A DNA stretch of 64,000 nucleotides from an uncultured Bacilli bacterium (GCA_963931305.1 OZ006994.1:134882-198881), one strand, 5' to 3'; positions 3,698 to 21,297 are shown, counted from the first letter of the stretch. Notes: generated by a model not told the origin, from the letters alone. Numbers and translations are program-made.

Positions 3698-3757
3698 GGG
3701 CTCTTCTTTTTTTATTAGATTTATGATATGATGGAAGAGATAATAAGGGTGAGGCTT

Positions 3758-6700
3758 ATGAAGATAATACTGTATTTGAATGATAAGAAAATTGATTTTT
3801 TGTTGCCACAACAAATTTTTGGTAGTTTTGGTTTTGATGAGAACAGCCAAGAAGAAAGTAAACTTATCCATATTGAGGCGAAAGATGGAAATTGGATATT
3901 GTGTAGTACTTCTGATGTTCAAATTATTGATCATAATCAGTATGTAAAAGAGATAAAATTAGAGCCAAACCAATTTTACGTTTTAAGAAGAGATGAAAAG
4001 AATTATTTGATATATGTTCAAGAAATTACATTTCCTGGATTTCAATTATATACATATCAAAAGGATTTACAAATTACGATTGGTAATCAACAAAATTGTA
4101 GTATCCAATATTTAATTCCATATATGCAAGGAGTGTTTGCGAAAATATATTATCGTGAAAATCGTTTAATGATAGAACGCGTTGGGAAAGGGAATATTTA
4201 TATCAATCGTATTGCACTAAAAGAAAATGCTTATTATATAAAAAATGGTGATTTTATAGATATATATGGTTTACAAATGATTTTTTTAGACGGTACTTTG
4301 TTTATTCGCCGTTTAGAACAAAAGATTCTTGTAAATTTAGAACTTAGTAAATTAACTGCTTATCAATTTCCAAAGGAAGAAGAACCAGAAAATGTTGAAA
4401 TAAAAAATTTAGAATTGTATTCAAAAAACTCTTATTTTTCAAAACCACCACGTTTACGTAGAATGATAGAGACAAAAGTGATAAAGTTAAGTGCTCCTCC
4501 ACGAGATGAAAGCAAAGAGGAAATGCCAATTGCTTTAGTAGTGGGACCCATGCTGACTATGGGAATTATGTCTGGAACTATGCTTTTGAATACGTTGATG
4601 CGTATTTCAGCAAAAGAAGCAACTTGGGCTTCTTCATGGCCACAGCTAGTTACCAGTGGTGCTATGTTGATTTCTATGATTGTATGGCCTATGGTAACGC
4701 AAGTTTATAATCGTAAAATGAAAAAAAGAAAACGTATTGAAACAGTTGAGAAGTATACAAAATATTTAAATGAGAAGAAAGAAGAATTATTACAAGAGGC
4801 AAAGTTACAAACTGATATTTTATATGAGAATTTATTAACTGTTGAGCAATGTTTGAATATTATTAAACATCAAGGAATTAACTTTTGGGATAAACGAATT
4901 GATCAGAGTGACTTTTTAGTGACACGTTTAGGAATTGGAAAAGAACACTTAGATGTTAAAATTGAATATCCCGATGAGGGATTTACTGTAGATGAAGATG
5001 AACTTCGCAAACAAGCAGATCAATTAGTAGAAGAGTTTCAATATATTTCTAATGTTCCAATTGGCTATTCATTTTATCAAAATAAAACCACAGCAATTAT
5101 GGGAACGAGTTATAAAGTAATGCATTTAATGCACAATATATTGTTACAATTAATGACATTTTATAGTTATGAAGACGTAAAGATTGTATTGTTTACCAAT
5201 CAAGAAAGAAAAGAACAATGGAACTATTTAAGATATTTAAAACATTGTTTTAATAATGAAGAAAGTATTCGTTTTTTTGCTGATGATTTAGAAAGTGCAA
5301 AGAATGTTGCCGATTATTTACAATTAGAAATTCATAATCGTATGCAGCAAAAAGAAAATCATAGTTCTGTTACATTAAAGCCATATTATTTTATTGTAAT
5401 TGATGATTATGATCAAGTAAGATATCATGAATTAATTAAGTTAATTACGGAAACTGATGAAAATTTAGGGTTTAGTTTGGTAATTTTAGAAAATAGATTG
5501 AGTAAGTTACCAAGTAAATGTAATAATTTTATTTCTGTAGGGGAAAATAGTTCCGGTATTTTGAAAAATTCTTATGAAAATCAGGAACAAGTAACATTTA
5601 CGGATGAAATTAAGTATGATATCAATATGATGGATGTTGTGAAACAGTTATCAAATATACCAATTGAGTTTGAAGATGGTGTTTCTTCTATTCCAGATTC
5701 TATTTCATTTTTAGAGATGGAAAAAGTAGGAAAAGTAGAACAATTGAATATTTTAAACCGTTGGAATACAAATGATTCTACGACAAGTTTAAAAGCAGAA
5801 ATTGGTGTTGATAGTCAAGAAAACTTAATGTATTTAGATCTTCATGAAAAGGCACATGGTCCACATGGATTAATTGCTGGTATGACTGGTAGTGGTAAGT
5901 CAGAGTTTATTATTACGTATATTTTATCTATGGCAATTAATTATAGCCCTGATGATGTTGCCTTTATCTTAATTGACTATAAAGGTGGAGGATTGGCATT
6001 TGCTTTTGAAAATAAGGCTGCAAATGTGATTTTACCTCATTTAGCGGGAACAATTACAAATTTAGATAAGGCAGAATTAAATCGTACACTTGTAAGTATT
6101 GATAGTGAAATTAAAAGACGACAAGAAATTTTTAATCAGGCAAGGGAACAACTAGGAGAAAGCACAATTGATATTTATAAATATCAAAGATTTTATAAAG
6201 AAGGAAAATTACAAGAACCTGTTCCTCACTTATTTATTATTTGTGATGAATTTGCAGAATTAAAAGTTCAACAACCTGAATTTATGGATAATTTGATTAG
6301 TGTTGCTCGTATTGGTCGTAGTTTGGGAATACACCTTATTTTAGCGACGCAAAAACCTAGTGGTGTAGTAAATGATCAAATTTGGTCTAATACGAAATTT
6401 CGTGTTTGTTTAAAAGTGCAAGATGAATCAGATAGCAAAGAGGTATTAAAGGTACCAGATGCTGCTTACTTAAGACAAACTGGACGTTTTTATTTAGAAG
6501 TAGGATATAATGAATATTTTGCGTTAGGTCAATCTGCATGGTGTGGTGATAAATATTATCCATCAGAACGAATTATAAAGCATATTGATCGAAGTGTTAG
6601 TTTTATTGATGATAGTGGGAATGATATTAAAAACACACAAATTTCTAGTGGAAATAAAATAACTGCTATGGGTGATCAATTATCAGCCATTATGAATATG

Positions 6701-8329
6701 ATTATTATGGTTGCGAACCAAGTAGAGAAACATACAAGAAAATTATGGCTAGAAAATGTCCCGGATTTTATTTTAGAAACTGATTTACAAAGTAAATATC
6801 AAATGACCTTTGATAAAAAACCAGCAGCAATTATAGGAGAATATGATGCTCCTGAGAAACAGGAACAAGGAATTGTTTCATATCACTATTTAGATGATGG
6901 AAATACGATTGTTTATGGTACGGATGGAGCAGAAAGAGAGTTGTTCTTAAATACTTTATTATATTCTACAATAAAAAATTATTCATCGTCTCAAATTCAA
7001 TTTTACATCATTGACTATGGTTCTGAATCATTAAGAAGTTATTTATCTTGTCCACATGTTGGTGGTATGGTGTTTGCCTCAGAGGATGAAAAATATCACA
7101 ATTTATTAAAAATGATTCGTGAAGAATTACAAAATAGAAAACGTATTTTACGAGATTATGGTGGAGAGTATTCTAATTATTTAGAATCTGGAAAAGATAA
7201 TTTACCAGTACAAGTAATTATTATGAACAATTTTGATTCTATATACGAAAATAATCCAGATATTTATGAATTATTACCAGAATTAGTACGTGATTCTGAA
7301 CGATATGGTATCATTTTTATCTTTACTGTGAATGCATTTAATTCACTTCCAAGTAAAATCTCACAAAATTGTAGTAATATTTATGCTTTCCATGTTAAAG
7401 ATAATGATGAGTATACATCTATCTTTAATCAAAGAGTAAAGGTGATGCCACGAGATATTGTTGGTCGTGGATTATTATTAAATGATGGTATTCATGAATT
7501 TCAGGTGGCACATATTTTCAATGAAGATGAGAATGCAAGTCAAAGAATGTTAGAATTTGTGGAAGAAGAAAAAAATAAAAATCAAGTAAGTGCAAAAAGA
7601 ATTCCTACTCTCCCAGATGTTATTACACTTTCCGACATTCAAGAATATATTTCTAATATTCATCGCGTTCCAATTGGAATTGTAAAAAGTGATTTACAAG
7701 TTTGCTATGTTGATTATTTAAATAGTCTTGGTAATATTGTTACTTCTACAAAGTTAGAAAATACAACAAACTTTATTTGCAGCTTATCTCTTGTATTAGA
7801 ACAAATGAAAAGTGTTCATACTATGTTATGGGATGCTTCTTCTAATTTAGAAAAATATCAAACATGTTTTCATCAATATTATAATCAACGCTTTCATGAA
7901 ATATTAGATGATCTTATTTTATCATTAGAAAAATACTCATCTATGTCTCAAAAGCCTAAATTAGTAGTATTTATCTATGATTTTGATAAATGGATTTCAA
8001 AATTAAAAGATACGAATCGTTTACAGATATTCGTACAAAAGATCAAAGAGTATGAAAATTTATCTTTGGTAATTGCTGATTCCTCATTAAAAATTAAAAA
8101 ATATGTATTTGAACCATGGTTTGCAAGTATATTTAGTGTAAATCAAGGTGTATGGATAGGTAGAGGCATCTCTGATCAGAGTTTGTTACATTTATCAAAC
8201 GTTACACGAGATATGACTAAAAATTATAAAAATGATATGGGATATTTTGTAGATGATGGTTTAGCAACACTTTGTAAATGGATTGACTTTTTTGTAACCG
8301 AAGATGTAGGTGATGATCATGAAGAATAA
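3758..8329 (+). CDS. essC: Type VII secretion system FtsK/SpoIIIE-family ATPase EssC (YukB-like)
   Basis: ~1523 aa: N-terminal FHA-like region, 2 TM helices and three FtsK-like ATPase domains. D1 carries a canonical Walker A (GLIAGMTGSGKSE) and Walker B (LFIICDEFAEL). There is long collinear identity to S. aureus EssC around IPDSISFLEM…LHEKAHGPHGL…LIDYKGGG. D2 and D3 have degenerate P-loops. The RBS aagggtgagg sits 4 nt upstream of the ATG at 3758. Confidence 0.9.
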   Translation: MKIILYLNDKKIDFLLPQQIFGSFGFDENSQEESKLIHIEAKDGNWILCSTSDVQIIDHNQYVKEIKLEPNQFYVLRRDEKNYLIYVQEITFPGFQLYTYQKDLQITIGNQQNCSIQYLIPYMQGVFAKIYYRENRLMIERVGKGNIYINRIALKENAYYIKNGDFIDIYGLQMIFLDGTLFIRRLEQKILVNLELSKLTAYQFPKEEEPENVEIKNLELYSKNSYFSKPPRLRRMIETKVIKLSAPPRDESKEEMPIALVVGPMLTMGIMSGTMLLNTLMRISAKEATWASSWPQLVTSGAMLISMIVWPMVTQVYNRKMKKRKRIETVEKYTKYLNEKKEELLQEAKLQTDILYENLLTVEQCLNIIKHQGINFWDKRIDQSDFLVTRLGIGKEHLDVKIEYPDEGFTVDEDELRKQADQLVEEFQYISNVPIGYSFYQNKTTAIMGTSYKVMHLMHNILLQLMTFYSYEDVKIVLFTNQERKEQWNYLRYLKHCFNNEESIRFFADDLESAKNVADYLQLEIHNRMQQKENHSSVTLKPYYFIVIDDYDQVRYHELIKLITETDENLGFSLVILENRLSKLPSKCNNFISVGENSSGILKNSYENQEQVTFTDEIKYDINMMDVVKQLSNIPIEFEDGVSSIPDSISFLEMEKVGKVEQLNILNRWNTNDSTTSLKAEIGVDSQENLMYLDLHEKAHGPHGLIAGMTGSGKSEFIITYILSMAINYSPDDVAFILIDYKGGGLAFAFENKAANVILPHLAGTITNLDKAELNRTLVSIDSEIKRRQEIFNQAREQLGESTIDIYKYQRFYKEGKLQEPVPHLFIICDEFAELKVQQPEFMDNLISVARIGRSLGIHLILATQKPSGVVNDQIWSNTKFRVCLKVQDESDSKEVLKVPDAAYLRQTGRFYLEVGYNEYFALGQSAWCGDKYYPSERIIKHIDRSVSFIDDSGNDIKNTQISSGNKITAMGDQLSAIMNMIIMVANQVEKHTRKLWLENVPDFILETDLQSKYQMTFDKKPAAIIGEYDAPEKQEQGIVSYHYLDDGNTIVYGTDGAERELFLNTLLYSTIKNYSSSQIQFYIIDYGSESLRSYLSCPHVGGMVFASEDEKYHNLLKMIREELQNRKRILRDYGGEYSNYLESGKDNLPVQVIIMNNFDSIYENNPDIYELLPELVRDSERYGIIFIFTVNAFNSLPSKISQNCSNIYAFHVKDNDEYTSIFNQRVKVMPRDIVGRGLLLNDGIHEFQVAHIFNEDENASQRMLEFVEEEKNKNQVSAKRIPTLPDVITLSDIQEYISNIHRVPIGIVKSDLQVCYVDYLNSLGNIVTSTKLENTTNFICSLSLVLEQMKSVHTMLWDASSNLEKYQTCFHQYYNQRFHEILDDLILSLEKYSSMSQKPKLVVFIYDFDKWISKLKDTNRLQIFVQKIKEYENLSLVIADSSLKIKKYVFEPWFASIFSVNQGVWIGRGISDQSLLHLSNVTRDMTKNYKNDMGYFVDDGLATLCKWIDFFVTEDVGDDHEE

Positions 8330-8588
8330 AGTATTAGTAAGATTAATTGTACCAGAATTAGATACTAGTTTTGATGTCTTTGTACCAATTAATGAAGTGA
8401 TATGGAGATTGAAAGCTCTATTTATAAAATCAATTTCGGATTTAAGTAGTTTTTCTCTTCCCACAGATGTGAATTATTTATTGTTAAATAAAGATACTGG
8501 TAAAATTTATCAGAATAATGAATTAGTATTAAATACGGATATCCGTAATGGTACAGAATTGTTTTTTGTTGCACGTAGTCAATTGTAA
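8319..8588 (+). CDS. esaB: T7SS ubiquitin-like protein EsaB/YukD
   Basis: ~89 aa with a beta-grasp-like pattern resembling EsaB/YukD (VLVRLIVPELDTSFDVFVPINE…). The start overlaps the essC stop, so the genes are translationally coupled. AGGTGA lies 5 nt upstream of the ATG at 8319. Confidence 0.65.
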   Translation: MKNKVLVRLIVPELDTSFDVFVPINEVIWRLKALFIKSISDLSSFSLPTDVNYLLLNKDTGKIYQNNELVLNTDIRNGTELFFVARSQL

Positions 8589-8605
8589 ACTATTGTAAAC
8601 AATAT

Positions 8606-8634
8606 TTGACTTTTTAAAAAACTTATATTAATAT
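8606..8634 (+). promoter_or_regulatory. Sigma-A-type promoter upstream of the EsxA-like gene
   Basis: TTGACT, a 17-nt spacer, then TAATAT. It is preceded by two tandem copies of attgtaaac (8582-8600), which could be an operator. Confidence 0.4.
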
Positions 8635-8677
8635 GAAATTAGATAGGATACTATCTATTATTAAAGGAGGCATAGAT

Positions 8678-9322
8678 ATGGCATTAACTGGATTTAATCC
8701 TGATGTAGTAAATTCATCAATTAATTCTGTAAAAGCAGCATATGAAAATTTAATTCAAGCGTTAGGAAATGATATGCAGACACGTTTTGTGAATGGAATG
8801 GCAGATAAATGGGCTTGTAATCAAGCACAAACATTCTTTAACAATTCTTTCAAACCTGCAATTGATAATTTAATTACAAGTTCAAATGCAATTTTTGAAA
8901 GTGTAGTAGCATCAATGAATAGTGCTGGACAAGCTTGGGCAGCACAAACTGATTCTTCATATTCTCCACAATCATTTTCAGCAATTTCAAAAACAATCGA
9001 TACAAGTGTGATTCGTGAAAATATTGGTGGAGTCAGAGGAATTGATTTATCATCAGCAACAACAGTTGCAAATCAATTAACTTCAATTGCTGACTCTGCA
9101 AAATCTGCACTAACAAGTGCACAACAAGCTGTACAAAATTGTGGATTTATTGGTGGAAATCAAGCAAGTAATTTAATTAATTCTTTAGGAGTTATTAAAA
9201 CTAAGATTGATAATGCTACTCAAGAAATTTCAAATCAATCAAGAACAGCCATCAACAACACTGTTGAAAGCTATTCTGATACAGAAGGAAGAGTTTCACA
9301 AGCGTTTTCTTCTGAAGGATAA
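8678..9322 (+). CDS. WXG100 (EsxA)-like T7SS substrate with a ~115-aa Ser/Thr/Asn-rich C-terminal extension
   Basis: The N-terminal ~100 aa align in pattern with EsxA/YukE (…RFVNGMADKWACNQAQTFF…, where WAC replaces WXG). The protein is helical and A/S/T/Q-rich. AAGGAGG lies 7 nt upstream of the ATG at 8678. The gene sits directly downstream of essC-esaB. Confidence 0.5.
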   Translation: MALTGFNPDVVNSSINSVKAAYENLIQALGNDMQTRFVNGMADKWACNQAQTFFNNSFKPAIDNLITSSNAIFESVVASMNSAGQAWAAQTDSSYSPQSFSAISKTIDTSVIRENIGGVRGIDLSSATTVANQLTSIADSAKSALTSAQQAVQNCGFIGGNQASNLINSLGVIKTKIDNATQEISNQSRTAINNTVESYSDTEGRVSQAFSSEG

Positions 9323-9350
9323 AATGATATAAAGAATACCAGGTGATAAT

Positions 9351-9905
9351 ATGGAAATTCATATTGATAAATTAAAGACAACGGTATTACAATTAAATCA
9401 TTGTATAGAAGAATATGAAGAAATTTATATGAATTTTTATCATGTAATTTCTTCTTCTTCTTTTTTTTGGAATGATAATCGTTCTAAAAAATTTTACGAG
9501 GCAATGTATACCGAGAAAAATCAAGTAAAAACAGTAATTGATGAACTATATAATTTAAAAAATATTTATGATTATATGATTGCAGAATATGAGAAAATTG
9601 GTACTAGAATACAAATTCAGTTAAGTGAAAAACAAAATGTAATTCAGTTGTTTGAAAAATATTTGGAAAAAATTCATCGCTGTATACAAATATTGTATTC
9701 AATTTCTTTAGATGCATATCCAGAAGTTGCTCCATTATTAGTAGAAGAAAAAAATAATTTTATCAGATTAGAACAACAAGTTCAAACATTAAAAGATAAG
9801 TTATCACAATTATTTGATAAAATAGAAGAATTGGAAAATCATATAAATAAAGAAATAAATAAATTACAGATTCAAAAAATATCAGAGATAGAAGGAGAAT
9901 ATTAA
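9351..9905 (+). CDS. WXG100-like / coiled-coil small protein (putative T7SS effector helper)
   Basis: 184 aa. The N-terminal helical hairpin has an FFWNDNRSKKFYEAMY motif in the WXG position, and the C-terminal half is a long coiled coil. It is tightly linked to the two following small ORFs. Confidence 0.4.
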   Translation: MEIHIDKLKTTVLQLNHCIEEYEEIYMNFYHVISSSSFFWNDNRSKKFYEAMYTEKNQVKTVIDELYNLKNIYDYMIAEYEKIGTRIQIQLSEKQNVIQLFEKYLEKIHRCIQILYSISLDAYPEVAPLLVEEKNNFIRLEQQVQTLKDKLSQLFDKIEELENHINKEINKLQIQKISEIEGEY

Positions 9906-9906
9906 T

Positions 9907-10200
9907 ATGGAACAATTTATGAACGAAGAGAAGTTTGCACAAGCAATTGAAAAATTAAAAATGTATTATAAAGAGGAGTCGCTATTATTTGATTCAATGA
10001 CAAAGTTGTTGACTAGCTTCTCACAAGATTATATTTCTGATAACGTAGATGATTTTCAAACATTAGATAATGAATTTTTAACAAAATTTCGTGCGATAAA
10101 AGAAAAACAAGCATATGGGATAAAATCTATGGAACAGTCGTTATTTGGTTACCAAGAAACAAAAATAAAAGTAGAAAATAAGTTAAAGGATATGATGTGA
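9907..10200 (+). CDS. Small helical protein (putative T7SS effector chaperone/adaptor, LapA/DUF3958-like by context)
   Basis: 97 aa and helical. The intergenic distance to the upstream gene is 1 nt. Confidence 0.3.
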   Translation: MEQFMNEEKFAQAIEKLKMYYKEESLLFDSMTKLLTSFSQDYISDNVDDFQTLDNEFLTKFRAIKEKQAYGIKSMEQSLFGYQETKIKVENKLKDMM

Positions 10201-10201
10201 T

Positions 10202-10450
10202 ATGAATACAGAAGAAATGATAAGAAAACAACAATATCAGTTGTTATTGAAACAAATGAAAATGCTACAAAATGAGATAGATGAATTAGAAGATGATTAT
10301 CAAATGGCAAAAAGCCAAGTAGAAAAAAGTATAATGGTTGATCATCATATTGGCTTTGAAAAAGAGTTTGAAACAATTCAAAATAGTCAAACGGCTTTGA
10401 AACAATATTTGATTTATGATATAATTTCTATGATATCAAAAAAAATATAA
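10202..10450 (+). CDS. Small coiled-coil protein (WXG100-like size; putative T7SS helper)
   Basis: 82 aa, Q/E/L-rich coiled coil. It is 1 nt from the upstream ORF and 12 nt from the CHAP-domain gene. Confidence 0.3.
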   Translation: MNTEEMIRKQQYQLLLKQMKMLQNEIDELEDDYQMAKSQVEKSIMVDHHIGFEKEFETIQNSQTALKQYLIYDIISMISKKI

Positions 10451-10462
10451 AGGGGGAGGTAT

Positions 10463-11842
10463 ATGGCATCTAAAATTAAAACTTCTTTAGCAAAAAATAC
10501 AAATATTGAGTTTGATAGTAAACCTCAAAGTCCTAATATTCTTAGTATAGAACAAAATAAAACCAATGTTGATAGTCAAAATAAAAGCAGTGGGAGTTCT
10601 CAAACTTCAAATCTTAATTCAGGACTTAACAAATCAACATCTTCTGTAGAAGAAATATCATATGAAGATTTAAATCTCCCTTTTTTTAAATCGATTGAAA
10701 AAAAAGCGGTTGATTGCTTATCTGCATTAAATCTAAATAATATAAATGAAGATATGATTGAATCAGTAGATGGAAATAAAATTCGTTTAAAAAATGGTAC
10801 TATCATTACTTTATATTCAAATTTGTTAAATGCAAAAAATCACACTTTTGAATTCAATACAATTCCTTATGAATTTCAAGCAGGTATTATTCAAGATATC
10901 AATGGCAATCAATTCATTTTTGATGAAAACGGTGTGCAAGAAGCTAATATAAAAGATTCAAAAGCATATAAAATTGGGAATCATATTGATTGGAATGAAG
11001 ATATTCACAGTATTTTATTGCAGTCTTTTAAAAATGTTGAAAATAAGCAAGAATTTGCATTTATTAAAAAGATCGAAAATAATTATTCATTGTATGAAAA
11101 AGCGCTTAATCAGATATTAGAAAAATATAAAGGTAATGAAGAGCAATTTGTAAAAGATTTTGGATTTTCAATGTATACTTTGGATTCAGATGGAAGTGTT
11201 CATTTTAATTATGAAACACTTGCAGTTTATCTAGGTAAAACATTATGGAATGATTATTATGGATATAAAGATATAAACGAAGTGAATAAGGCTCAATTAC
11301 AATTACGACCAGAATCTGGTAATCAATTATTTCGTATTATGAATGATGGGTCGATTGGTATTAATAATACAAATTATCCTATTGTTTCAATTTCTGAATG
11401 GGATAGAGAAATTGACAATTTTTCTGATTTAGATGTAAAGAAGTATGGCGTAGGAAATAATTTATTAATTGGACAGTGTACTTGGTTTGCTTCTAGAAGA
11501 TATCATCAAACGCATGGAGTAGTACCAGTTACTAATGGAAATGCAACTGATTGGATTTATAATGCGAATCAAAATAGCGTTGGTAGTGTTCCTAAGAAAC
11601 ATTCTGTTATGGTATTGGGAGGAACAGAATATGGACATGTAGCTTTTGTTGAAGATGTAAAATATGATGCTGCTGGGAATGTCACATCTATTACGATTTC
11701 CGAAGCTAATGTAAATGGGGATCCTAATAACGTAGAAAGTACAGTGGCGCGTGCAGAGCAATTAACACGTGTAAATACTTATAGTAGTGTTCAAGAATAT
11801 GCAAATTTAGTAAAAATGCCTGTCAAAGGATTTATTTATTAG
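10463..11842 (+). CDS. CHAP-domain (NlpC/P60-superfamily) peptidoglycan hydrolase/amidase with no signal peptide; candidate T7SS-exported effector
   Basis: The C-terminal ~120 aa form a CHAP domain with catalytic Cys and His (…GQCTWFASRRYHQ… GHVAFVEDV…). The N-terminal ~330 aa are hydrophilic and low-complexity, with no Sec signal or TM. GGGGGAGG lies upstream of the ATG. Confidence 0.65.
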   Translation: MASKIKTSLAKNTNIEFDSKPQSPNILSIEQNKTNVDSQNKSSGSSQTSNLNSGLNKSTSSVEEISYEDLNLPFFKSIEKKAVDCLSALNLNNINEDMIESVDGNKIRLKNGTIITLYSNLLNAKNHTFEFNTIPYEFQAGIIQDINGNQFIFDENGVQEANIKDSKAYKIGNHIDWNEDIHSILLQSFKNVENKQEFAFIKKIENNYSLYEKALNQILEKYKGNEEQFVKDFGFSMYTLDSDGSVHFNYETLAVYLGKTLWNDYYGYKDINEVNKAQLQLRPESGNQLFRIMNDGSIGINNTNYPIVSISEWDREIDNFSDLDVKKYGVGNNLLIGQCTWFASRRYHQTHGVVPVTNGNATDWIYNANQNSVGSVPKKHSVMVLGGTEYGHVAFVEDVKYDAAGNVTSITISEANVNGDPNNVESTVARAEQLTRVNTYSSVQEYANLVKMPVKGFIY

Positions 11843-11912
11843 AAGGAAGTATATATTACTTTCTTTTTGTTTTATATGATTTAAAAACGCATATATTTTA
11901 TTAGGTGATACT

Positions 11913-12578
11913 ATGCTGAAGTATAAATTATATGTGTTTTTTTCGTTTCTTATATTACTTTGTCTTGTTTCTTTTGGCCAAGCAAAGACTGTAAGTAAAC
12001 CTTTATATCAAAAAACTATTTTTTTAGATGCTGGGCATGGTGGTCCTGATAGTGGTGCATTATATCGAAATATATATGAAAAAGATATTAATTTGAGTAT
12101 TGTCAAAAAATTAGAAAAAAAATTAACTGATAAAGGAGCGAAAGTTTTTTTAACACGCGATGGTGATTATGATTTATCTGTACCATATACTGTGAATCGC
12201 AAGCGTAGTGATCTTTCAAGAAGAAGTAATATGATAAACCGTTCTCAGTGTGATTTATACATTTCTATTCACTTAAATGCCGATACTTCTACTACCTATC
12301 ATGGGGCACAAGTATTTTACGATAGTAAAGTAAAACAAAATAAAAAAATTGCTGAAATCATTCAATCTGATTTAAAACAATATTTGTATACCACAAGAGA
12401 AGCAAAACAAAAGAACGATATGTATTTATTTCATCGCTTAGAAAAACCTGGTGTTTTAGTAGAAATAGGATATATTACGAATCCAAATGATCGTTATTTG
12501 CTATTGCAAAATGAATATCAAGAAAAAGTCGCTAAGATTTTAACAAATAGTATTATCCGTTATTTTTATAAAAAATAA
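11913..12578 (+). CDS. cwlD: Germination-specific N-acetylmuramoyl-L-alanine amidase CwlD (Amidase_3)
   Basis: 221 aa: signal/anchor segment plus Amidase_3. Near-collinear motif matches to B. subtilis CwlD (IFLDAGHGGPDSGA, LYISIHLNA, HGAQVFY, KPGVLVEIGYITNP, YQEKVAKILTNSIIRYF). Confidence 0.8.
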   Translation: MLKYKLYVFFSFLILLCLVSFGQAKTVSKPLYQKTIFLDAGHGGPDSGALYRNIYEKDINLSIVKKLEKKLTDKGAKVFLTRDGDYDLSVPYTVNRKRSDLSRRSNMINRSQCDLYISIHLNADTSTTYHGAQVFYDSKVKQNKKIAEIIQSDLKQYLYTTREAKQKNDMYLFHRLEKPGVLVEIGYITNPNDRYLLLQNEYQEKVAKILTNSIIRYFYKK

Positions 12579-12633
12579 CTATATTTTTTTATTTGATAAT
12601 AAAACATAAAAAAAACATATTTCACCACAATTT

Positions 12634-12646
12634 TTGTGATATAATT
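12634..12646 (+). promoter_or_regulatory. Extended -10 promoter element upstream of the Abi_2 gene
   Basis: TGtgaTATAAT motif ~15 nt upstream of the RBS taggtgag. Confidence 0.35.
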
Positions 12647-12661
12647 AACCTAGGTGAGAGT

Positions 12662-13594
12662 ATGAGGAGCAAGATATTTAAAACCCTGGATGAACAACTT
12701 GCTATCTTAGAGGAACGTGGTTTAGTAATTCAGGACTATGATAAAGCAAAGGCAATTTTATTCCGTGAAAATTATTTTTTCATTAATGGATATCGTCATT
12801 TATTTGCAAAAAGTCCTAAAAATGATCAATTTATTACTGGAACGACTTTTGATGAATTATATGCAACTTTTACTTTCGACCGTAGTCTTAGAAATTTAAT
12901 GTTTAAATATTTGCTCATTATAGAAAATAATATAAAATCTATTATTAGTTATCAATTATCTAGAAAATATGGATATAAAGAAAAAGAATACTTAAACCCA
13001 AATAACTTTACACAAGATTCTATGAAAACAAGACAAGTACATGATATTTTGTCAAAAATGAAGAGACAGATTCGTGTTAATGGAAAGCAGCATACTGCGA
13101 CCTCTCACTATCTATTAAATTACGGATATATTCCAATGTGGATCTTGGTAAAAGTATTGTCTTTTGGCATTGTTTCTGAATTATATACAATTTTAAAATC
13201 AGAAGATCAATTAGTAATTGCTGATTTTTATCATATTGATACAGAAACATTAGGTATCTTTTTAGCGCTTCTTTCTAATTTTAGAAACTTATGTGCGCAT
13301 GAAGATATTTTATATGATCATAGGACACAACGCTCTATACCAGATAATAAATACCATTATGCACTTCATGTTGATAAAACAGATGATGAATATAATTATG
13401 GGAAAAATGATTTATTTGCTTTAATTATTATTATGAAATATATGTTATCTTCTGAAGAGTTTTCTGATATGATGAATGAACTCAGTTATGAGATTGATCG
13501 GTTAGATGGTATTGTGAATGTTGTCCCATTAAATACAATATTAAATAAAATTGGTTTTCCAGATAATTGGCGTGATATTGAACTTTTAGATTAG
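12662..13594 (+). CDS. Abi_2 family abortive-infection protein (AbiD/AbiF/AbiD1-like)
   Basis: ~310 aa. The N-terminus is the typical Abi_2 start (…FKTLDEQLAILEERGLVI…) and conserved blocks follow (NYGYIPMWILVKVLSFG, FRNLCAHED). The start is taken at the ATG at 12662 after a GGTGAG RBS. The ORF extends upstream to 12593. Confidence 0.7.
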   Translation: MRSKIFKTLDEQLAILEERGLVIQDYDKAKAILFRENYFFINGYRHLFAKSPKNDQFITGTTFDELYATFTFDRSLRNLMFKYLLIIENNIKSIISYQLSRKYGYKEKEYLNPNNFTQDSMKTRQVHDILSKMKRQIRVNGKQHTATSHYLLNYGYIPMWILVKVLSFGIVSELYTILKSEDQLVIADFYHIDTETLGIFLALLSNFRNLCAHEDILYDHRTQRSIPDNKYHYALHVDKTDDEYNYGKNDLFALIIIMKYMLSSEEFSDMMNELSYEIDRLDGIVNVVPLNTILNKIGFPDNWRDIELLD

Positions 13595-14730: not shown

Positions 14731-14806
14731 TATTTAAATCTCTCATTTTATAGTTTTTTTGTGACAAAGTATAATCATTTACATATTTTAATATAGGGGT
14801 GAAAAC

Positions 14807-15100
14807 ATGAATAATCCAAGAATTGTCATTGATGCAGGACATGGTGGTACGGATGGAGGAGCAACAGGAAATGGAATTATAGAAAAAAACTTAACTTTAG
14901 ATATTTCTAAATATATGTATAATCGTTTTCGTGAGCTTGGAATTCCTGTTACAATGACTAGAACTACTGATGAAACTTTATCTCCTACAGAGCGTGTAAA
15001 TCGTATTATGGATGCATATGGTGATGAGAAGGGAGTCATTATTATTTCAAATCACATCAATGCGGGGGGAGCGGAGTTTAGTTACCATTACATAATTTAA
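14807..15100 (+). CDS. 5' segment of a split Amidase_3-LysM cell-wall amidase gene (N-terminal catalytic half, interrupted after …HINAGG)
   Basis: Amidase_3 N-terminal motifs (IVIDAGHGGTDGGA… ISNHINAGG). After codon GGA (15068-15070) the frame reads 10 foreign codons and then stops. The rest of the domain resumes at 20188. Confidence 0.7.
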   Translation: MNNPRIVIDAGHGGTDGGATGNGIIEKNLTLDISKYMYNRFRELGIPVTMTRTTDETLSPTERVNRIMDAYGDEKGVIIISNHINAGGAEFSYHYII

Positions 15101-15408
15101 TTGGGCAGTTATAAGAGGCTCAGTAAGATATAAGACTTATATTAGAACTTATCTTATAGAAATATAAGATGAATACAGTTTAAACTATTACATATTTCAA
15201 AGAACTAAAATGAAATATGAAAAGGGGTAAAAAAACATATGTTATAGTTTAAACATATCAAAGGAGACTTTCTCCTTTAGAGGGATTTTGTTTACTATTT
15301 TTTGTAATTAGGCTTATAAAATGTAAGTCTTTTTTGTTGTTTAATTTAAATAAATATAGGAGAAATGTTAAAAATTAATACTAAAGAATTAAGAAAAAAG
15401 GCTGATAA

Positions 15409-15708
15409 ATGAACTTCGACAAGTATTTAAAAATTCCAATGTTTTTAGCTGATGATAAGAATATAGGACATAGTGGTAAATTGTTATATGCTAGACTATT
15501 ATTACTTACACATAAAGAAGGTTATTGCTATGCTGATAATAGCTACTTAGGTAATTTAATAGGGGTAGGATCTAGAAGAATAACTAAACTATTAAAAGAA
15601 TTATCAGATAATAATTATATAACTATGGAATATAAACATAAATTTCAAAGAAAAATTTATATTAATAAAAATAAATATACATCCATTACTTTAGAAGAAA
15701 TGTTCTAA
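15409..15708 (+). CDS. Small putative winged-helix DNA-binding protein (phage/plasmid RepA-N / HTH_36-like); possible excision/regulatory factor of the element
   Basis: 99 aa with the pattern …GKLLYARLLLLTHKEGYCYADNSYLGNLIGVGSRRITKLLKELSDNNYI…, typical of phage helix-turn-helix proteins. It is followed by a hairpin at 15712-15736. Confidence 0.35.
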   Translation: MNFDKYLKIPMFLADDKNIGHSGKLLYARLLLLTHKEGYCYADNSYLGNLIGVGSRRITKLLKELSDNNYITMEYKHKFQRKIYINKNKYTSITLEEMF

Positions 15709-16074
15709 TTAATTGGATGTATATTTTACATCCAATGGATCTTTATATCTACAATAATATAATAAATAGAATATAAAAAATATTAATAGGATATATTTAT
15801 TATAAAATTATTTTATATATTTAAAAAGAGAAAGGAAGTTGATATATGTATGATAAAAAAATAATTTTAAACATAAATTTAAATAGGTGGTTTAAATATG
15901 AGAGGAGCCTATTTGAATAAAATTTCATTTAAAGATCTTATTTTGAAGTACTTAATCGAAGAGATAATGAAACAAGAAGGAGTAAAAAATAATTAATGAT
16001 TTGCAATTATTCATTAATGATGTTATCATTCATTTGTCTAAATACCCAATTAAGTAAGAAGATTGGAGGAATGA

Positions 16075-17730
16075 ATGAATAATACTTACTTAAATGGATT
16101 AGATTTCAATGTTGGAATCTATATAAGATTATCTCAAGAAGATAAGGACAAAAAATATGAATCTGATAGTGAAAGTGTAATAAATCAAAAAGAATTATTA
16201 AGAAATTATGTTAAAAATAATAATTTTAATTTAGTTAAAGAATATGTTGATGATGGATTTTCTGGAACCGATTTTGAAAGACCAGGATTTAAAAGTTTAT
16301 TAGAAGATATTAATAATAAAAAAATTAATTGTGTAATAGTAAAAGATTTATCAAGACTCGGTCGTGATCATGTTATGACTGGTTATTATATTGAAACGTT
16401 TTTTCCAGAGAACAATATAAGATTTATTTCTATATTAGAATCCTTTGATAGTTTTAAAAATCAAGCTAGTAATGATTCATCAACATTTATAATTGCATGT
16501 AATGATTATTATAGTAAACAAAATTCTGTTAAAATTAGAAATGTATTAAACGAAAAAAGAAAGAATGGAAAGTTTATAGGGAGTTTACCTAGTTTTGGAT
16601 ATATGAGAGATCCAAAAGATAAAGGACACTTAATCCCTAATCCAGAAACTGCTCCAATTGTTAAAAAGATATTCAAGTGGAGAGCAGATGGTATTGGACC
16701 TACTGAAATAGCAACTAGATTAAATAATAATAATGTTCCAACTCCAAGTGGCTATAAGAAAACAAACTTTTCTTCTAGATTAATTGATAGGGATACTTGG
16801 AATATTTCCACAGTAAAGAAAATTTTAACAAATAGAATTTATACTGGAGATATGGTTCAACACACTCAAGCTAAAGCGAATTATAAGTCTAAGAAAAAAA
16901 TAAATCTTGATGCAAGTTTATGGATGATAGTAGAAAATACACATCAACCTTTAGTTGATAAAACAACATTTGAATATGTTCAATCGCTTAGAAAAAGATA
17001 TACTAGAAATGTACCTATAAAAACAGGTAGGGAAAAAAGAATTTTGGAAGGTAAGTTATTTTGTAAGGAATGTGGAAATAGATTATCGGTTTATTATAGA
17101 AAAAAACAAGATTATTGGTCTATTAATTGTAATAGATATTCTAGAGATCCAAAAAGAGGGAGATGCAGTTCACATTTCTTTCCATATAACTATCTAGAAG
17201 ACCAGATATTAGAAAAAATTGATGAATCAGTATCTAGTTTTATTAAAGAATTAAATATAGATGAATTAAATAAAAAAGTAATAAAAACAATTTATAAGCA
17301 AACACAAAGCGTTGATAAAAAAATTAGTGATTTAAATAAAGATAAAGAACAAATATTAAATAGGTTATCAAATTTGTATAATGATAGATGTGAAGGTATT
17401 ATAACGGGAGTATTATATCAAGAATTATCTTTAGAATCAGAAAAAAAGTTAAAGAAGATAAATGAAAGTATTAAAAATGAAAAAATAAAAAAATTAAATA
17501 TTAAAAATAAAAGTGCAACATTACCTAATTATACTAAAAAAATAAAAGAATTATTAGATTTAAAGAAGCCTCGGAAATCATTAATAGATACACTGATAGA
17601 CACAATAGCAATTGATGAAAAAAGAAATATATGTATAAAATTTAAATATGAAGTGATTCCAAATATTAATTTTAAATATGAAAATAGAAACTTGGCTAGA
17701 AATCCGTATGGTAGAAAAGGAAAGAAATAA
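16075..17730 (+). CDS. Large serine recombinase (resolvase/invertase catalytic domain + recombinase + zinc-ribbon/coiled-coil C-terminal region)
   Basis: 551 aa. N-terminal serine-recombinase catalytic motif (VGIYIRLSQED… DDGFSGTDFERPGF… VIVKDLSRLGRD), a central recombinase domain and a Cys-rich zinc ribbon (CKECGN…C…C), as in SpoIVCA, SprA, CcrB and phiC31-type integrases. Confidence 0.85.
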   Translation: MNNTYLNGLDFNVGIYIRLSQEDKDKKYESDSESVINQKELLRNYVKNNNFNLVKEYVDDGFSGTDFERPGFKSLLEDINNKKINCVIVKDLSRLGRDHVMTGYYIETFFPENNIRFISILESFDSFKNQASNDSSTFIIACNDYYSKQNSVKIRNVLNEKRKNGKFIGSLPSFGYMRDPKDKGHLIPNPETAPIVKKIFKWRADGIGPTEIATRLNNNNVPTPSGYKKTNFSSRLIDRDTWNISTVKKILTNRIYTGDMVQHTQAKANYKSKKKINLDASLWMIVENTHQPLVDKTTFEYVQSLRKRYTRNVPIKTGREKRILEGKLFCKECGNRLSVYYRKKQDYWSINCNRYSRDPKRGRCSSHFFPYNYLEDQILEKIDESVSSFIKELNIDELNKKVIKTIYKQTQSVDKKISDLNKDKEQILNRLSNLYNDRCEGIITGVLYQELSLESEKKLKKINESIKNEKIKKLNIKNKSATLPNYTKKIKELLDLKKPRKSLIDTLIDTIAIDEKRNICIKFKYEVIPNINFKYENRNLARNPYGRKGKK

Positions 17731-17812
17731 CTTTAATATGTTCTATTTTAAACATAACTAATAAAATTATAGTATAATAATATTGTAGTTTGATATGAAG
17801 GGATGTAACTAT

Positions 17813-18541
17813 ATGATTAAAGTGGAATTAACAAAAAATTATACTGGTGTTAATATATCTGGTGACTATGAAGATTTAGATTTTCTATATGATTCAATTC
17901 ATTATTTTATAAAAGAAGAACCTAAAAGTTTAATTGAAGAATCTATGCAAGATCATATTTTTGGATTTTTATATGAGGTTAGACATTGTTATCAAGGTGA
18001 TAGAGATTTTAAATTTGTTGATAATGAACTTAGAGATGAAGTTAGAGAATATCAAAAGATACAAAAAAATGAGATCTCAAATAACAATTTATATTATAGT
18101 TTTGACTATGTTTTAACTGATTTATTTACGGATATGGTATTAATTAAATATTTTATTATGAATATTCCAAAAACCGAAAAAAATGATTATAATCCATATT
18201 TGAACAATGTCAAATTGTTTTATTCGCAAATTTTAAATTTGATGCAAGAGATTTTAACACCTACAAAGATGAGAAAATTAGAAAAAGGATTTATTGATAC
18301 AATAATTTCGGACAAAATATTTTTTCCACAATGGTTTGATGTTATAACGTGCAATTACTTAAAACAAACTAAAGAAAAAAGAGTAAAAGAGTTATCTAAA
18401 ACTTTAGATGCTATTTATAATTATAGTGATTATATGGATTACTCTAAAATGAAAATAGAAGTAGAAAAATATTGCAATGAAAATAATTGTTTAATAACAA
18501 ATGTAACAATATGTGAATATCCTGGTGAAATAGAATGGTAA
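17813..18541 (+). CDS. Hypothetical protein (element cargo)
   Basis: ~242 aa with no recognisable motif. The start is taken at the ATG at 17813, 9 nt downstream of an AAGGGA RBS. An in-frame ATG at 17795 is also possible. Confidence 0.3.
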   Translation: MIKVELTKNYTGVNISGDYEDLDFLYDSIHYFIKEEPKSLIEESMQDHIFGFLYEVRHCYQGDRDFKFVDNELRDEVREYQKIQKNEISNNNLYYSFDYVLTDLFTDMVLIKYFIMNIPKTEKNDYNPYLNNVKLFYSQILNLMQEILTPTKMRKLEKGFIDTIISDKIFFPQWFDVITCNYLKQTKEKRVKELSKTLDAIYNYSDYMDYSKMKIEVEKYCNENNCLITNVTICEYPGEIEW

Positions 18542-18615
18542 TATGCAAATATTTTTAAAATATCGACAATAAAAACATTTTATAGTATGTATAATAAATA
18601 TAAGGAGATGATTCG

Positions 18616-20133
18616 ATGACTGAAGCTGAAGTAATTGAGGCAATAAATCATGTAAGAAAATATAATACAGAAACAAATACGATTGAAGTTAAGACAGCAT
18701 CAATGGATTTCCCTAAAAAATGTTATGATACTTTTTCAAGTTTTTCTAATAAATATGGTGGAATTATAATTTTTGGTATAAATGAAGAAAATGGTTTTAA
18801 AACTGAAGGTGTATATGATTTGAATGACTTACAAAAGAAAATTTCTTCTTTATGTAGTGATTCTATGGAACCGGCAATTAGACCTGATATTTTACCTATG
18901 GAATTTGAAGGTAAAAATATATTGGCTGTTAAAATAGATGAAATTCTTCAAAATAAAAAACCATGCTATTATATACCGAAGGGGTTAAATAAAGGTTCAT
19001 ATACAAGAGTTGGAGATAGAGATGAAGTAATGACTGATTATGAAATTTATGCACTCCAAAGTTATAATGATCATATTTTTGAAGATACTAGACCTACAAA
19101 GAGAGCAAGTATTGATGACTTGAATCAAGAAGAACTAACAAAATATATAAATAAGTTAAAAGAAGAAAAACCAAATTTTGCTAAAAATGATTTTGATAAA
19201 TGTTTAAAAATATGTGGCATTACGGATACTAATGATGAGAAAGTATATCCAACTTTAGCTGGTACGATGTTGTTTGGAGAATTTCCACAGACTTATTACC
19301 CTCAATTATTTGTTGCTTGTGTTGTAATTCCAGGTATCGAAATTGGAGATACAGGTGTTTTAGGTGAAAGATTTATTGATAATAAAAGAGTTGAAGGAAC
19401 TATAGAAGAAATGATTACAGGTACTATGAATTTTTTGACACGTAATATGAAAAATAGTGTAATAATTAATTCTCAAGGAAAAAGAATTAATAGAACAGAG
19501 TATCCGTTAGAAGCATTAAGAGAAGCTGTTGCTAATGCTTTGATTCATAGAGATTATAGTACACAAACTGAAAATGCATATGTATCAGTTTATATGTATA
19601 ATGATAGAATTGAAATTATAAATCCAGGTGCATTATATGGTACTAATAAATTAGAAAAATTAGGGACAGCAACAACTATGGAATCGAGAAATCCAACTAT
19701 TGTTAGAATTCTTGAAGAAAAAGGTGATGTAATTGAAAATCGACATTCTGGAATCCCAACAATGATAAGAGAAATGGAAAAATATGGATTACCTGAACCT
19801 GAATTTTATGAAGAAAGAGATAGTTTTAAAGTTATTTTTAGAAACAAAACTGTTGTTATTAATGAAGAAAGTGATACACAAAGTGGACAACAAAGTGGAC
19901 AACAAAGTGGACAACAAAAAAGCAGTATTACTGAATATCAAAATATGGTATTAGAATACTGTAAAGAAGCCAAAACAGCCAAGGAAATAAAAAGTTATTT
20001 ACAAATTAAATCAAGACAATATATTTCTACAAATATTATCAAGCCTTTAATTAATAGTGGAAAATTAGATTATACAAATAAAAATAGTATTAATGCTAGA
20101 AATCAAAAATATTTAACTATAAAAAAGGATTAA
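18616..20133 (+). CDS. AlbA_2 (Schlafen-like divergent AAA) + HATPase_c_4 + C-terminal winged-HTH protein (family annotated 'RecG-like' / putative transcriptional regulator)
   Basis: 505 aa. N-terminal AlbA_2-like region; central HATPase_c_4 signature (LREAVANALIHRDYS); an SGQQ x3 linker; a C-terminal wHTH. AAGGAG lies 8 nt upstream of the ATG. Confidence 0.55.
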   Translation: MTEAEVIEAINHVRKYNTETNTIEVKTASMDFPKKCYDTFSSFSNKYGGIIIFGINEENGFKTEGVYDLNDLQKKISSLCSDSMEPAIRPDILPMEFEGKNILAVKIDEILQNKKPCYYIPKGLNKGSYTRVGDRDEVMTDYEIYALQSYNDHIFEDTRPTKRASIDDLNQEELTKYINKLKEEKPNFAKNDFDKCLKICGITDTNDEKVYPTLAGTMLFGEFPQTYYPQLFVACVVIPGIEIGDTGVLGERFIDNKRVEGTIEEMITGTMNFLTRNMKNSVIINSQGKRINRTEYPLEALREAVANALIHRDYSTQTENAYVSVYMYNDRIEIINPGALYGTNKLEKLGTATTMESRNPTIVRILEEKGDVIENRHSGIPTMIREMEKYGLPEPEFYEERDSFKVIFRNKTVVINEESDTQSGQQSGQQSGQQKSSITEYQNMVLEYCKEAKTAKEIKSYLQIKSRQYISTNIIKPLINSGKLDYTNKNSINARNQKYLTIKKD

Positions 20134-20187
20134 ATATAAAAATTTTTTAAAATAAGTTGTAGTGGAGAGTAGAATATTCGTGGTGGA

Positions 20188-21297
20188 GATGGTGCCGAAG
20201 TAATTTATGCCCTTCGCGATGATGCAACTTTAGCCAATGATATTTTAACAGAATTAGAAAAAAGTGGTCAAAATGTGAGAGAAGCATTCCAAAGAAGATT
20301 ACCAAGTAATACTGCCAAAGATTATTATTTCATTCATAGAGATACAGGAATAAATACAGAGCCAGTAATTGTAGAATATGGTTTTTTAGATAGTACTGGA
20401 GATGATCCTGAGCAGTTGAAAGAAGATTATGATATCTTAGCAGAGGCAGTTGTTCGTGGTGTGATGAAATATATTGATAAACCATATTCTGGTGGAGAAA
20501 TAGAAGGTACTTATACAGTTAAAAGTGGAGACAGTCTATGGAGTATAGCCAATCGTTTTAATACGACTGTTGCCGAAATAAAACGATTGAATAATTTAAA
20601 TACGAATGCACTGCAAGTAGGTCAAGTTTTGAAATTGCCAACAGGAAATGAGAATGCAAATGATAGTCAAGAAAATACTTACACCGTAAAAAGTGGAGAT
20701 AGTTTATGGAGTATAGCTAATCGTTTTCATACAACTGTTCCTGAGTTAAAAACATTAAATAATTTAAATACGAACATTTTACAAATTGGGCAAATATTAA
20801 AATTGCCAACCAACACTGGAAATACAAATATTAACCAAGAAAGTACTTATACAGTAAAAATCGGGGATAGCTTATGGAGTATTGCTCGCAAATATGATAT
20901 AAGTGTTAGTGAATTACAAAATTTAAATCATTTAACTTCTACTACTCTACAGGTAGGTCAAGTGTTAAAGATACCACAAAATAATTCAAGTAATGAAGAT
21001 AGTACTTTTAATACTTATATTGTACAAAGTGGAGATAGTTTGTGGAATATAGCCAATCGTTTTGGAACCACAGTAGATGAGTTAATACGTTTGAATGGAT
21101 TAAATAGTAATATTTTAAATATTGGGCAAGTGTTAAAGTTGCCAAGTAATATAAATTCTAATCAAACATATATTGTAAAAGCTGGCGACAGCTTATGGAA
21201 TATTGCACAACGTTTTGGAACAACAGTAAATGCATTAAAAAAGAAAAATAACTTAGTTAATAATAATTTAATGATTGGTCAAGTTTTGAAAATATAA
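20188..21297 (+). CDS. 3' segment of the split amidase gene: C-terminal half of the Amidase_3 domain plus five LysM repeats
   Basis: …GDGAEVIYALRDDATLANDIL… PVIVEYGFLDST… completes the Amidase_3 fold. Five LysM motifs follow (YTVKSGDSLWSIANRF…LNNLN…LQVGQVLKLP). No RBS or start codon sits at the junction, and the frame opens only 13 nt upstream. Confidence 0.7.
   Translation, partial: DGAEVIYALRDDATLANDILTELEKSGQNVREAFQRRLPSNTAKDYYFIHRDTGINTEPVIVEYGFLDSTGDDPEQLKEDYDILAEAVVRGVMKYIDKPYSGGEIEGTYTVKSGDSLWSIANRFNTTVAEIKRLNNLNTNALQVGQVLKLPTGNENANDSQENTYTVKSGDSLWSIANRFHTTVPELKTLNNLNTNILQIGQILKLPTNTGNTNINQESTYTVKIGDSLWSIARKYDISVSELQNLNHLTSTTLQVGQVLKIPQNNSSNEDSTFNTYIVQSGDSLWNIANRFGTTVDELIRLNGLNSNILNIGQVLKLPSNINSNQTYIVKAGDSLWNIAQRFGTTVNALKKKNNLVNNNLMIGQVLKI

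Follow-up and report, generated by a model that had tools for sequence, protein, structure and literature searches.

Recombinase elements that reside inside a coding sequence are known from the sporulation-excised skin, SPbeta and skinCd and from gin of Bacillus cereus, a non-phage, gene-intervening element carrying GirC/GirX (PMC5595907). Here we analyse an element of about 5.1 kb that interrupts an amidase gene in a 64,000-nucleotide (nt) stretch of DNA from an uncultured Bacilli bacterium (GCA_963931305.1 OZ006994.1:134882-198881), called the window below, and that carries a large serine recombinase (LSR) together with two cargo genes, one for a 505-amino-acid (aa) Schlafen protein and one for a 242-aa protein of the DUF6904 family (Table 1). 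On balance, we consider it probable that the region represents the passenger load of the LSR element and that its two cargo genes travel as independent single-gene passengers, a Schlafen gene of the Schlatpase-HTH type and a conflict-type DUF6904 gene. The Schlafen gene is a new example of a known and recently named class, the element a new example of the non-phage gene-intervening kind, and nothing in the region is categorically new.

Prokaryotic Schlafens share the catalytic motif Ex4(E/D)xK, and 19.2% of 5,930 of them have the architecture Slfn-HisKinase-HTH (PMC13056530). The combination of SLFN with PF13749 has been termed the "Schlatpase" supradomain and is present in 58.6% of 103,533 prokaryotic SLFN proteins, which are mostly small and in which a C-terminal helix-turn-helix (HTH) is optional (bioRxiv 10.64898/2026.05.29.728809). 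In SLFN-pAgo, where the supradomain is joined to a prokaryotic Argonaute (pAgo), it works as an ATP-gated tRNase: the nuclease is assembled, tRNA is cleaved and abortive infection follows (bioRxiv 10.64898/2026.05.29.728809). Defence has been demonstrated for DUF262-Slfn, Ig-Slfn, SLFN-pAgo, a type III CRISPR-associated Schlafen and an Enterococcus Schlafen, the last of which is encoded beside a small serine recombinase and provides strong defence (PMC13552941).

Judged from its sequence, the element is a small non-phage integrative element, moved by an LSR and seated inside a gene for an Amidase_3-LysM hydrolase. The 5′ fragment of this gene matches Pfam Amidase_3 (E 6.9e-20, profile positions 1-78 of 174, for the open reading frame (ORF) 14807..15100), and the 3′ part carries five LysM stretches (E 1.9e-92); the mechanical ORF call for the latter was 20275..21297. 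When the two halves are joined at the GGAG core common to both junctions, INAGGDGAEVIY is restored in frame, and the rejoined protein reads ...INAGG/DGAEVIY... (the slash marks the joint) or, in a longer form, ...SNHINAGG/DGAEVIYALRDD..., again in frame. The predicted attB junction is AATGCGGGGGGAGATGGTGCCGAAG and the predicted attP junction is TTCGTGGTGGAGCGGAGTTTAG. In a decayed copy of the element (locus L011, see below), homology to the window stops at window position 20183, near the right junction. The order of genes within the element is HTH_36 protein, tiny ORF, three-domain LSR and the two cargo genes. The LSR has Resolvase (E 1.2e-22), Recombinase (E 3.6e-25) and Zn_ribbon_recom (E 1e-10) domains and matches the integrase family phrog_95 (E 2.6e-99). 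A scan of the element against PHROGs found no phage structural, packaging or lysis genes; its matches were the integrase, the N-terminal domain of a replication initiator and, for the Schlafen protein, a family labelled "DNA helicase". A first-pass annotation, made from the sequence by eye, had described these genes as cargo of an intervening element; the four ORFs that it listed are all present on the + strand, and its description is borne out as that of a small non-phage element driven by an LSR.

The gin element is the closest in kind. Like gin, the element of the window is small, lacks phage structural genes and encodes an LSR, and like gin and the skin-type elements it has a short core at both junctions and would restore the reading frame upon excision. 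In contrast to gin, skin and SPbeta, whose targets are gerE, sigK and spsM, it interrupts a gene for an Amidase_3-LysM hydrolase; it also differs from them in that the core is only 4 bp long, the host belongs to an uncultured low-GC gut lineage of the Bacilli (the GC content of the window is about 22-34% across 8-28 kb) and excision is predicted from sequence. Several hints are consistent with excision being specific to sporulation. Besides the in-frame split, a sigmaK-like match (AC-16-CATAnnnTA, at 14764-14790) stands directly upstream of the amidase start, although the window is not enriched in this pattern (5 occurrences, 3.7 expected); a neighbouring gene has a SleB/CwlJ-type domain; and related contigs carry spo0A-like, sigF and spoVA genes. 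The last and indirect hint is a metagenome contig of 5222 nt (ENA ERZ21549445 NODE_26213) that corresponds to window 15015-20236, that is, to the element with about 55 nt of amidase flank on each side. Being a SPAdes-style contig with the signature of an assembly-graph bubble, it points to a mixture of occupied and empty (or excised) alleles in the sample.

Two small ORFs precede the recombinase gene. The 99-aa protein, which the first-pass annotation had recognised as a winged-helix-like protein of phage type, is indeed a HTH_36 protein (PF13730, E 4.9e-8), and its PHROGs matches (phrog_19658, phrog_186) are to replication initiators and DnaD-like loaders, of which it covers the N-terminal winged-helix part only. 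It corresponds to the N-terminal DNA-binding domain of phage or plasmid replication initiators, and it is a candidate regulator or recombination directionality factor (RDF) of the element. A 33%-identical homologue adjoins DUF6904 in another locus (L012). The 32-aa ORF matches no Pfam family. It had been annotated as unconserved; the ORF is present, and the lack of conservation is not confirmed, since every instance of this ORF comes from a near-identical version of the element. It sits where some elements have their small RDF genes, and LSR genes of related loci likewise have small ORFs in this upstream position. Three of these (L005 11313-11480, L017 1475-1636 and L022 13843-14142) have a common helical motif of the type KLY(D/N)..I(T)..Y, and the 32-aa ORF of the window takes their position without obvious similarity to them. 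All four small ORFs directly upstream of recombinase genes are candidate directionality factors.

The 505-aa protein is, by its predicted domains, a standalone prokaryotic Schlafen of the Schlatpase-HTH class, a common class that was recently named. The composition proposed by the first-pass annotation, AlbA_2 followed by HATPase_c_4 and a winged HTH, agrees with the Pfam matches to SLFN_AlbA_2 (PF04326, E 1e-16, residues 19-139) and HATPase_c_4 (PF13749, E 8.4e-24) and with a C-terminal winged helix. The last was seen as a match to Fic-like_C that falls below the Pfam cut-off in the window protein (E 0.0017) and reaches E 6.4e-6 in a 40%-identical homologue, and as a winged-helix topology of three helices and a hairpin in residues 438-505 of the structural model, with a pLDDT of about 80-89. 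The nuclease motif Ex4(E/D)xK is present as E19-TNTI-E24-V-K26, and the ExxxN pair of the GHKL domain is present as E303-x3-N307, equivalent to E314/N318 of RzAgo. These five residues (E19, E24, K26, E303, N307) are invariant in 37 homologues of 69-92% identity. Comparison of the model with Foldseek returned full-length the COG2865-type protein 3LMM (DIP2311), followed by 2KYY, which was a PDB match as well (E 4.5e-9); in addition, it returned the nuclease domain of human SLFN5/11/12/13/14, ATP-binding domains of histidine kinases and winged-helix proteins. Between window positions 19865 and 19912, a 12-nt tandem repeat encodes (QSGQ)x3, which lies in the linker between the GHKL domain and the winged helix.

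How does this protein compare with the Schlafens described so far? The same three-part architecture, the Ex4ExK and ExxxN motifs and a similar size are found in pSlfn-HisKinase-HTH (Perez Taboada et al. 2026, PMC13056530), in Schlatpases and in DIP2311 (3LMM), and, as with other standalone Schlatpases, the gene resides in a mobile or variable location. The relatives that have been characterised bring additional modules for sensing (an Argonaute core, DUF262 or Ig-like domains), whereas the standalone architecture of the 505-aa protein is one without a demonstrated phenotype. The QSGQ-repeat linker and the transport in a gene-splitting serine-recombinase element are further differences of the window copy. 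It resembles the defence cargo of Enterococcus (PMC13552941) in that a gene with a Schlafen domain lies beside a serine recombinase on a mobile element; there, the recombinases are small and the validated Schlafen has no recognisable C-terminal domains, whereas in the window the recombinase is a large serine integrase. The remark of the first-pass annotation that AlbA_2/Schlafen-like modules recur in defence contexts has gained weight, as proteins of this kind have since been tied to antiphage defence through other architectures (PMC13056530; bioRxiv 10.64898/2026.05.29.728809). Its failure to recognise a known defence system by eye is matched by PADLOC, which finds no complete system: the 505-aa protein gave partial matches to Schlafen-carrying pAgo and Aga models, through the shared Schlafen and GHKL domains.

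The Schlafen family is large (5085 matches at E 1e-10 among 8000 candidates scored), and the 505-aa homologues listed range from 412 to 652 aa. Among three loci with close homologues, one has a defence-like context, where a 73%-identical homologue adjoins SLFN-g3_helicase and AAA_13/nSTAND3 genes; the other two have not, the 80%-identical homologue adjoining DUF2975/HTH_26 genes and the 77%-identical one lying among envelope housekeeping genes. The gene of the window is itself on a mobile element, and relatives are carried by Streptococcus phage satellites. Homologues of 38-40% identity were found in three GenBank records named "Bacteriophage sp." from human faeces (L042-L044; MT837137, MT836711, MT839573), which encode GGDEF, SpoIIID, HAD, GH3 and MatE proteins and have neither DUF6904 nor an LSR. 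A phage origin of the Schlafen gene was considered and rejected: the best "phage" matches are mislabelled fragments of bacterial chromosomes, and IMG/VR holds no close relative.

A mode of action can be proposed by analogy for a protein whose domain architecture, intact catalytic motifs and purifying selection (dN/dS 0.19 between the window and the copies L010/L011 described below) are observed here. The nuclease sites of the AlbA_2/Schlafen domain (E19-x4-E24-x-K26), once assembled, might cut tRNA or another RNA, and this cutting might in turn cause abortive infection when a phage or other foreign DNA invades. The part that senses nucleic acid or serves autoregulation would then be the C-terminal winged helix. 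The target of the nuclease, its trigger and the defence phenotype are in this proposal presumed to follow those of the characterised relatives.

The 242-aa protein had been annotated as an orphan with no recognisable domain. This proved incorrect: it matches DUF6904 (PF21845), an existing and uncharacterised Pfam family, over profile positions 1-238 of 238 with an E value of 7.2e-48 and 163.9 bits, far above the cut-off of 27, and it has the standalone, roughly 240-aa size typical of this family. An alternative ATG upstream, at 17795, would give 248 aa; the start of the 242-aa form agrees with the N-termini of all homologues and has AAGGGA about 10 nt upstream. A full HMMER scan of 1.84 billion representative proteins (representatives at 50% identity) yielded 438 members at an E value of 0.001 or better, nearly all of them standalone proteins of 240-265 aa. 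The motifs shared across the family are TxNxxGxxIxGD near the N-terminus, (C)YDxRHAxxGDR, QYxDxLN and YPExIEW at the C-terminus. The protein is predicted to be self-contained and soluble, with a confident AlphaFold2 model (pLDDT 93, pTM 0.88), and structure comparison of this model found no known structural relative. DUF6904 is absent from IMG/VR and from 50,697 GenBank phage records and gave one weak partial match in 72,556 plasmids; PADLOC-DB 2.0 contains no match to it, to the LSR or to the HTH_36 protein. In the literature searched, no paper mentions DUF6904, and UPF0158, a frequent neighbour (see below), is mentioned once, incidentally. The comparison of the window with L010/L011 gave a dN/dS of 0.09-0.14 for DUF6904, which indicates purifying selection.

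Scanning one genome per species with the DUF6904 profile gave 32 loci. In the clade at 43-58% identity, a UPF0158 gene (PF03682) lies directly upstream of DUF6904 in 16 of the 26 loci, usually with a gap of 5-9 nt, and a gene for a SEC-C-motif protein often follows; the copy of the window differs from this usual arrangement of its lineage in that it has neither neighbour. In this gut lineage, DUF6904 usually takes second place in a UPF0158-DUF6904(-SEC-C) operon, close to Abi/TA and candidate defence genes. Genes for Metallophos_2, AAA_14/DUF4143, AbiEi/AbiEii and AAA_21 with a partner gene recur nearby in this clade, and among the DUF6904 neighbours PADLOC recognised AbiLi, AbiE, AriA-like and Cas2 proteins and several candidate families. 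A more distant clade, about 25-30% identical to the window protein, was surveyed in 80 metagenome loci with a subset of the family alignment, as the full alignment is too diverse. No recurrent neighbour emerged, the commonest Pfam families among the 148 neighbour clusters having only 2-3 members each. In this clade, a Geobacter metagenome-assembled genome (MAG; L034 10674-11555) and a Pedobacter MAG (L035) have the same unannotated 294-aa protein with a Cys-rich N-terminus encoded after the DUF6904 gene, an adjacency conserved across phyla.

Related loci show DUF6904 on other elements that split genes. In L004 (1-9351), a dacF-like carboxypeptidase gene just upstream of spoIIAA-sigF-spoVAC/D/E is interrupted twice, by two different LSR elements: one lies before residue 158, and residues 158-253 and 248-419 are parted by an element of 6.9 kb in which the LSR comes first and DUF6904 last and which also carries KilA-N and a sigma-70-like gene. 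A 240-aa ORF that follows the other LSR of this locus was considered as a DUF6904 relative and rejected, being 17% identical and unrelated. In L005/L006 and L017, a gene for a SpoVD/FtsI-like penicillin-binding protein (PBP) is split at residues 412-415 by an element of 7.2 kb, the cargo of which comprises AbiEi/AbiEii, UPF0158-DUF6904 and a TrpB-like gene beside the LSR, and L017 and L020 have a further LSR insertion farther upstream in the same PBP gene. L013 and L014 carry a similar island as well, there upstream of a PBP gene that is intact. The LSRs that travel with DUF6904 are about 24% identical to that of the window and were found with blastp, phmmer with the window LSR having missed them all; the accompanying DUF6904 proteins are 50-58% identical. 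DUF6904 therefore behaves as a mobile accessory gene of variable regions that has been captured repeatedly by different serine-recombinase elements in this lineage, and a role in genetic conflict, whether defence or immunity, is the most likely one. A bolder version, in which DUF6904, as the usual middle gene of a UPF0158-DUF6904-SEC-C operon and with a fold that lacks known relatives, is the core of an undescribed conflict system repeatedly captured by LSR elements that split peptidoglycan-enzyme genes in an apparently spore-forming lineage, appears to us doubtful at present; were it true, gene-splitting elements that are excised during development would serve this lineage as dedicated carriers of defence genes.

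Do the two cargo genes belong together? Several observations weigh against reading them as independent passengers of a conflict type, and they give substance to a number of alternatives. The genes are adjacent and co-oriented, 74 nt apart with no terminator predicted between them, and they may be co-transcribed and functionally linked within this lineage. The first-pass annotation had seen in 17813..20133 a two-gene module, which could be a dedicated defence or regulatory pair of, for example, a sensor or inhibitor and an effector. The pair has been kept together in the diverged copies L010 and L011, with both genes under purifying selection. Against this, these two are the only loci among the 32 from genomes in which a Schlafen homologue stands beside DUF6904, and they match the window with 88.5-89% nucleotide identity over the entire right part of the element, which makes them copies of the same element and confines every co-occurrence to one element lineage. 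No Schlafen neighbour appeared in the other DUF6904 loci surveyed (27 from genomes, 80 from metagenomes and 6 from a contig look-up), nor DUF6904 in any of six independent contexts of 505-aa homologues at 38-80% identity. The Schlafen family is, moreover, far larger than the 438 representatives of DUF6904, which has recurrent lineage partners of its own in the UPF0158 and SEC-C proteins. The pair thus fails the co-localisation test that the first-pass annotation had itself set, and we regard a dedicated module as very improbable: the two genes share a vehicle, not a system, and are adjacent here because both ride the same element. The promoter-like sequence that had been placed at 18560-18600, in front of the 505-aa gene, does not hold up well either. 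A perfect TATAAT is found at 18590-18595, with the ribosome-binding site AAGGAG about 20 nt further downstream, but the -35-like hexamer TCGACA (18563-18568) is 21 nt away from it, the site was not listed by a consensus scan, and promoter-like sites in the region are as numerous as chance predicts (48 against 49.1 in shuffled sequence); a promoter of its own is possible for this gene. The two decayed copies might suggest that the cargo no longer has a function and is carried along as neutral or decaying ballast. L010 (297-1691) has an IS30-like transposase in the position of the recombinase. L011 (4205-6758) is a remnant in which the final 125 nt of the recombinase gene are left, along with DUF6904 and a Schlafen gene that has suffered a frameshift, and in place of the amidase gene it has two spo0A-like genes in tandem beside it. 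Both ORFs of the window are uninterrupted and preceded by ribosome-binding sites, all catalytic residues are kept, and dN/dS is 0.09-0.19 between the diverged copies, which leaves this explanation hardly credible.

The functions of the single genes have to be weighed as well. DUF6904 might be no cargo at all but a factor for maintenance of the element, such as the RDF of the serine recombinase: its gene is directly downstream of the recombinase gene in the window, it occurs in at least five other LSR-bearing loci (L004, L005/6, L017, L020, L022), some of which split other genes, and RDFs conserve neither sequence nor synteny (PMC12286644). We rejected this as the principal explanation, and consider it highly unlikely, because the LSRs are far more diverged than the DUF6904 proteins that accompany them, the opposite of what is expected of a co-evolving binding partner, and because most DUF6904 genes have no LSR within the available flank (one was found in 3 of the 80 distant-clade loci, and many close-clade loci lack it). 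Its position relative to the LSR also varies, and it is intact in L010 and L011, where the LSR has been lost. For the 505-aa protein, the alternative is that it binds DNA and regulates the transcription of element or host genes, as the classical COG2865-type annotation has it, and plays no part in immunity. Schlafen proteins have traditionally been annotated as transcriptional regulators or DNA-binding proteins, the homologues are named "putative DNA binding domain-containing protein" in the sources, the protein ends in a winged helix, and not just the 77%-identical homologue but several close ones lie among housekeeping genes, outside defence islands. In the sole published test, HisKinase-type Schlafens gave E. 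coli no protection against the phage panel used (PMC13056530), and no published experiment shows defence by a standalone Schlatpase-HTH. A pure repressor, however, would not need the invariant nuclease triad and GHKL ATPase residues, and in SLFN-pAgo this supradomain acts as a tRNase effector gated by ATP; the defence-like surroundings of the 73%-identical homologue and the relatives on phage satellites likewise speak against a plain regulator, which we judge unlikely. To be set against the reading of two conflict-type passengers are the moderate quality of the 505-aa model overall (pLDDT 62, with confident nuclease and C-terminal domains), the ordinary metabolic genes that make up many of the distant-clade DUF6904 neighbours, so that the conflict reading of this family rests on a subset of contexts, and the want of any biochemical clue for DUF6904. 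Two independent passengers of one LSR element remain the reading that we prefer.

With this reading, a vague pair of an orphan and a Schlafen-like protein is turned into two genes that can be tested separately. The 505-aa gene is a clean natural example, on a tiny mobile element, of the most common and still unvalidated bacterial Schlafen architecture, and, coming from a Gram-positive gut lineage, it lends itself well to a first functional test of a standalone Schlatpase-HTH. DUF6904, as a rare family with a fold without known relative and with variable neighbourhoods rich in abortive-infection (Abi) and toxin-antitoxin (TA) genes, and as cargo of gene-splitting recombinase elements, is a reasonable target for the discovery of defence genes. 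The related loci suggest that serine-recombinase elements frequently interrupt genes for the cell wall and for sporulation in these uncultured Bacilli.

Table 1. Coordinates of the element, its genes and junctions in the window, and of related PBP-splitting loci.
Feature	Position	Strand	Basis
5′ fragment, N-acetylmuramoyl-L-alanine amidase gene	14807..15071	+	Amidase_3 residues 1-88, ends at shared core
Left junction core GGAG, within GGGGGAG	15068..15071		comparison of both junction sequences
Intervening element, about 5.1 kb	15072..20188	+ (every gene)	junctions and gene content
HTH_36 winged-helix protein, 99 aa	15409..15708	+	PF13730, E 4.9e-8
Putative ORF, 32 aa	15898..15996	+	ORF list; 78 nt upstream of recombinase gene
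LSR, 551 aa	16075..17730	+	Pfam and PHROGs
DUF6904 protein, 242 aa, standalone single domain	17813..18541	+	PF21845
Prokaryotic Schlafen, predicted Schlatpase-HTH type, 505 aa	18616..20133	+	AlbA_2 nuclease, GHKL ATPase, QSGQ-repeat linker and winged helix
Right junction core GGAG, within GGTGGAG	20185..20188		junction sequence
Amidase gene, 3′ part	20182..21297	+	in frame from 20182 (GGDGAEVIY...), five LysM repeats at end
PBP-splitting loci	L005 4642-13778; L017 1645-11714; L020 2513-7559

Some features of the surroundings deserve mention. In window 3728-12578, an EssC-like protein of 1533 aa with two stretches of FtsK_SpoIIIE is followed by small ORFs, among them a weakly YwqH-like one, and by a CHAP protein of 459 aa and an Amidase_3 protein of 221 aa, an arrangement that resembles a type VIIb secretion locus whose substrates are peptidoglycan hydrolases. 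A reading of this region as the tail and lysis block of a prophage was rejected, since the 1533-aa protein, with its FtsK_SpoIIIE domains, is no tape measure. Upstream of it lie envelope genes (ABC-2, GT2, Alg14/Alg13-like and GtrA). On the other side of the element, at 29543-30733, a patatin-like phospholipase weakly resembles CBASS and antiphage phospholipase models, with scores far under the cut-offs. A protein of the abortive-infection family Abi_2 is encoded at 12593-13594, between the secretion-like locus and a gene for an HtrA-type protease; this places a second gene of conflict type less than 2 kb away from the element.

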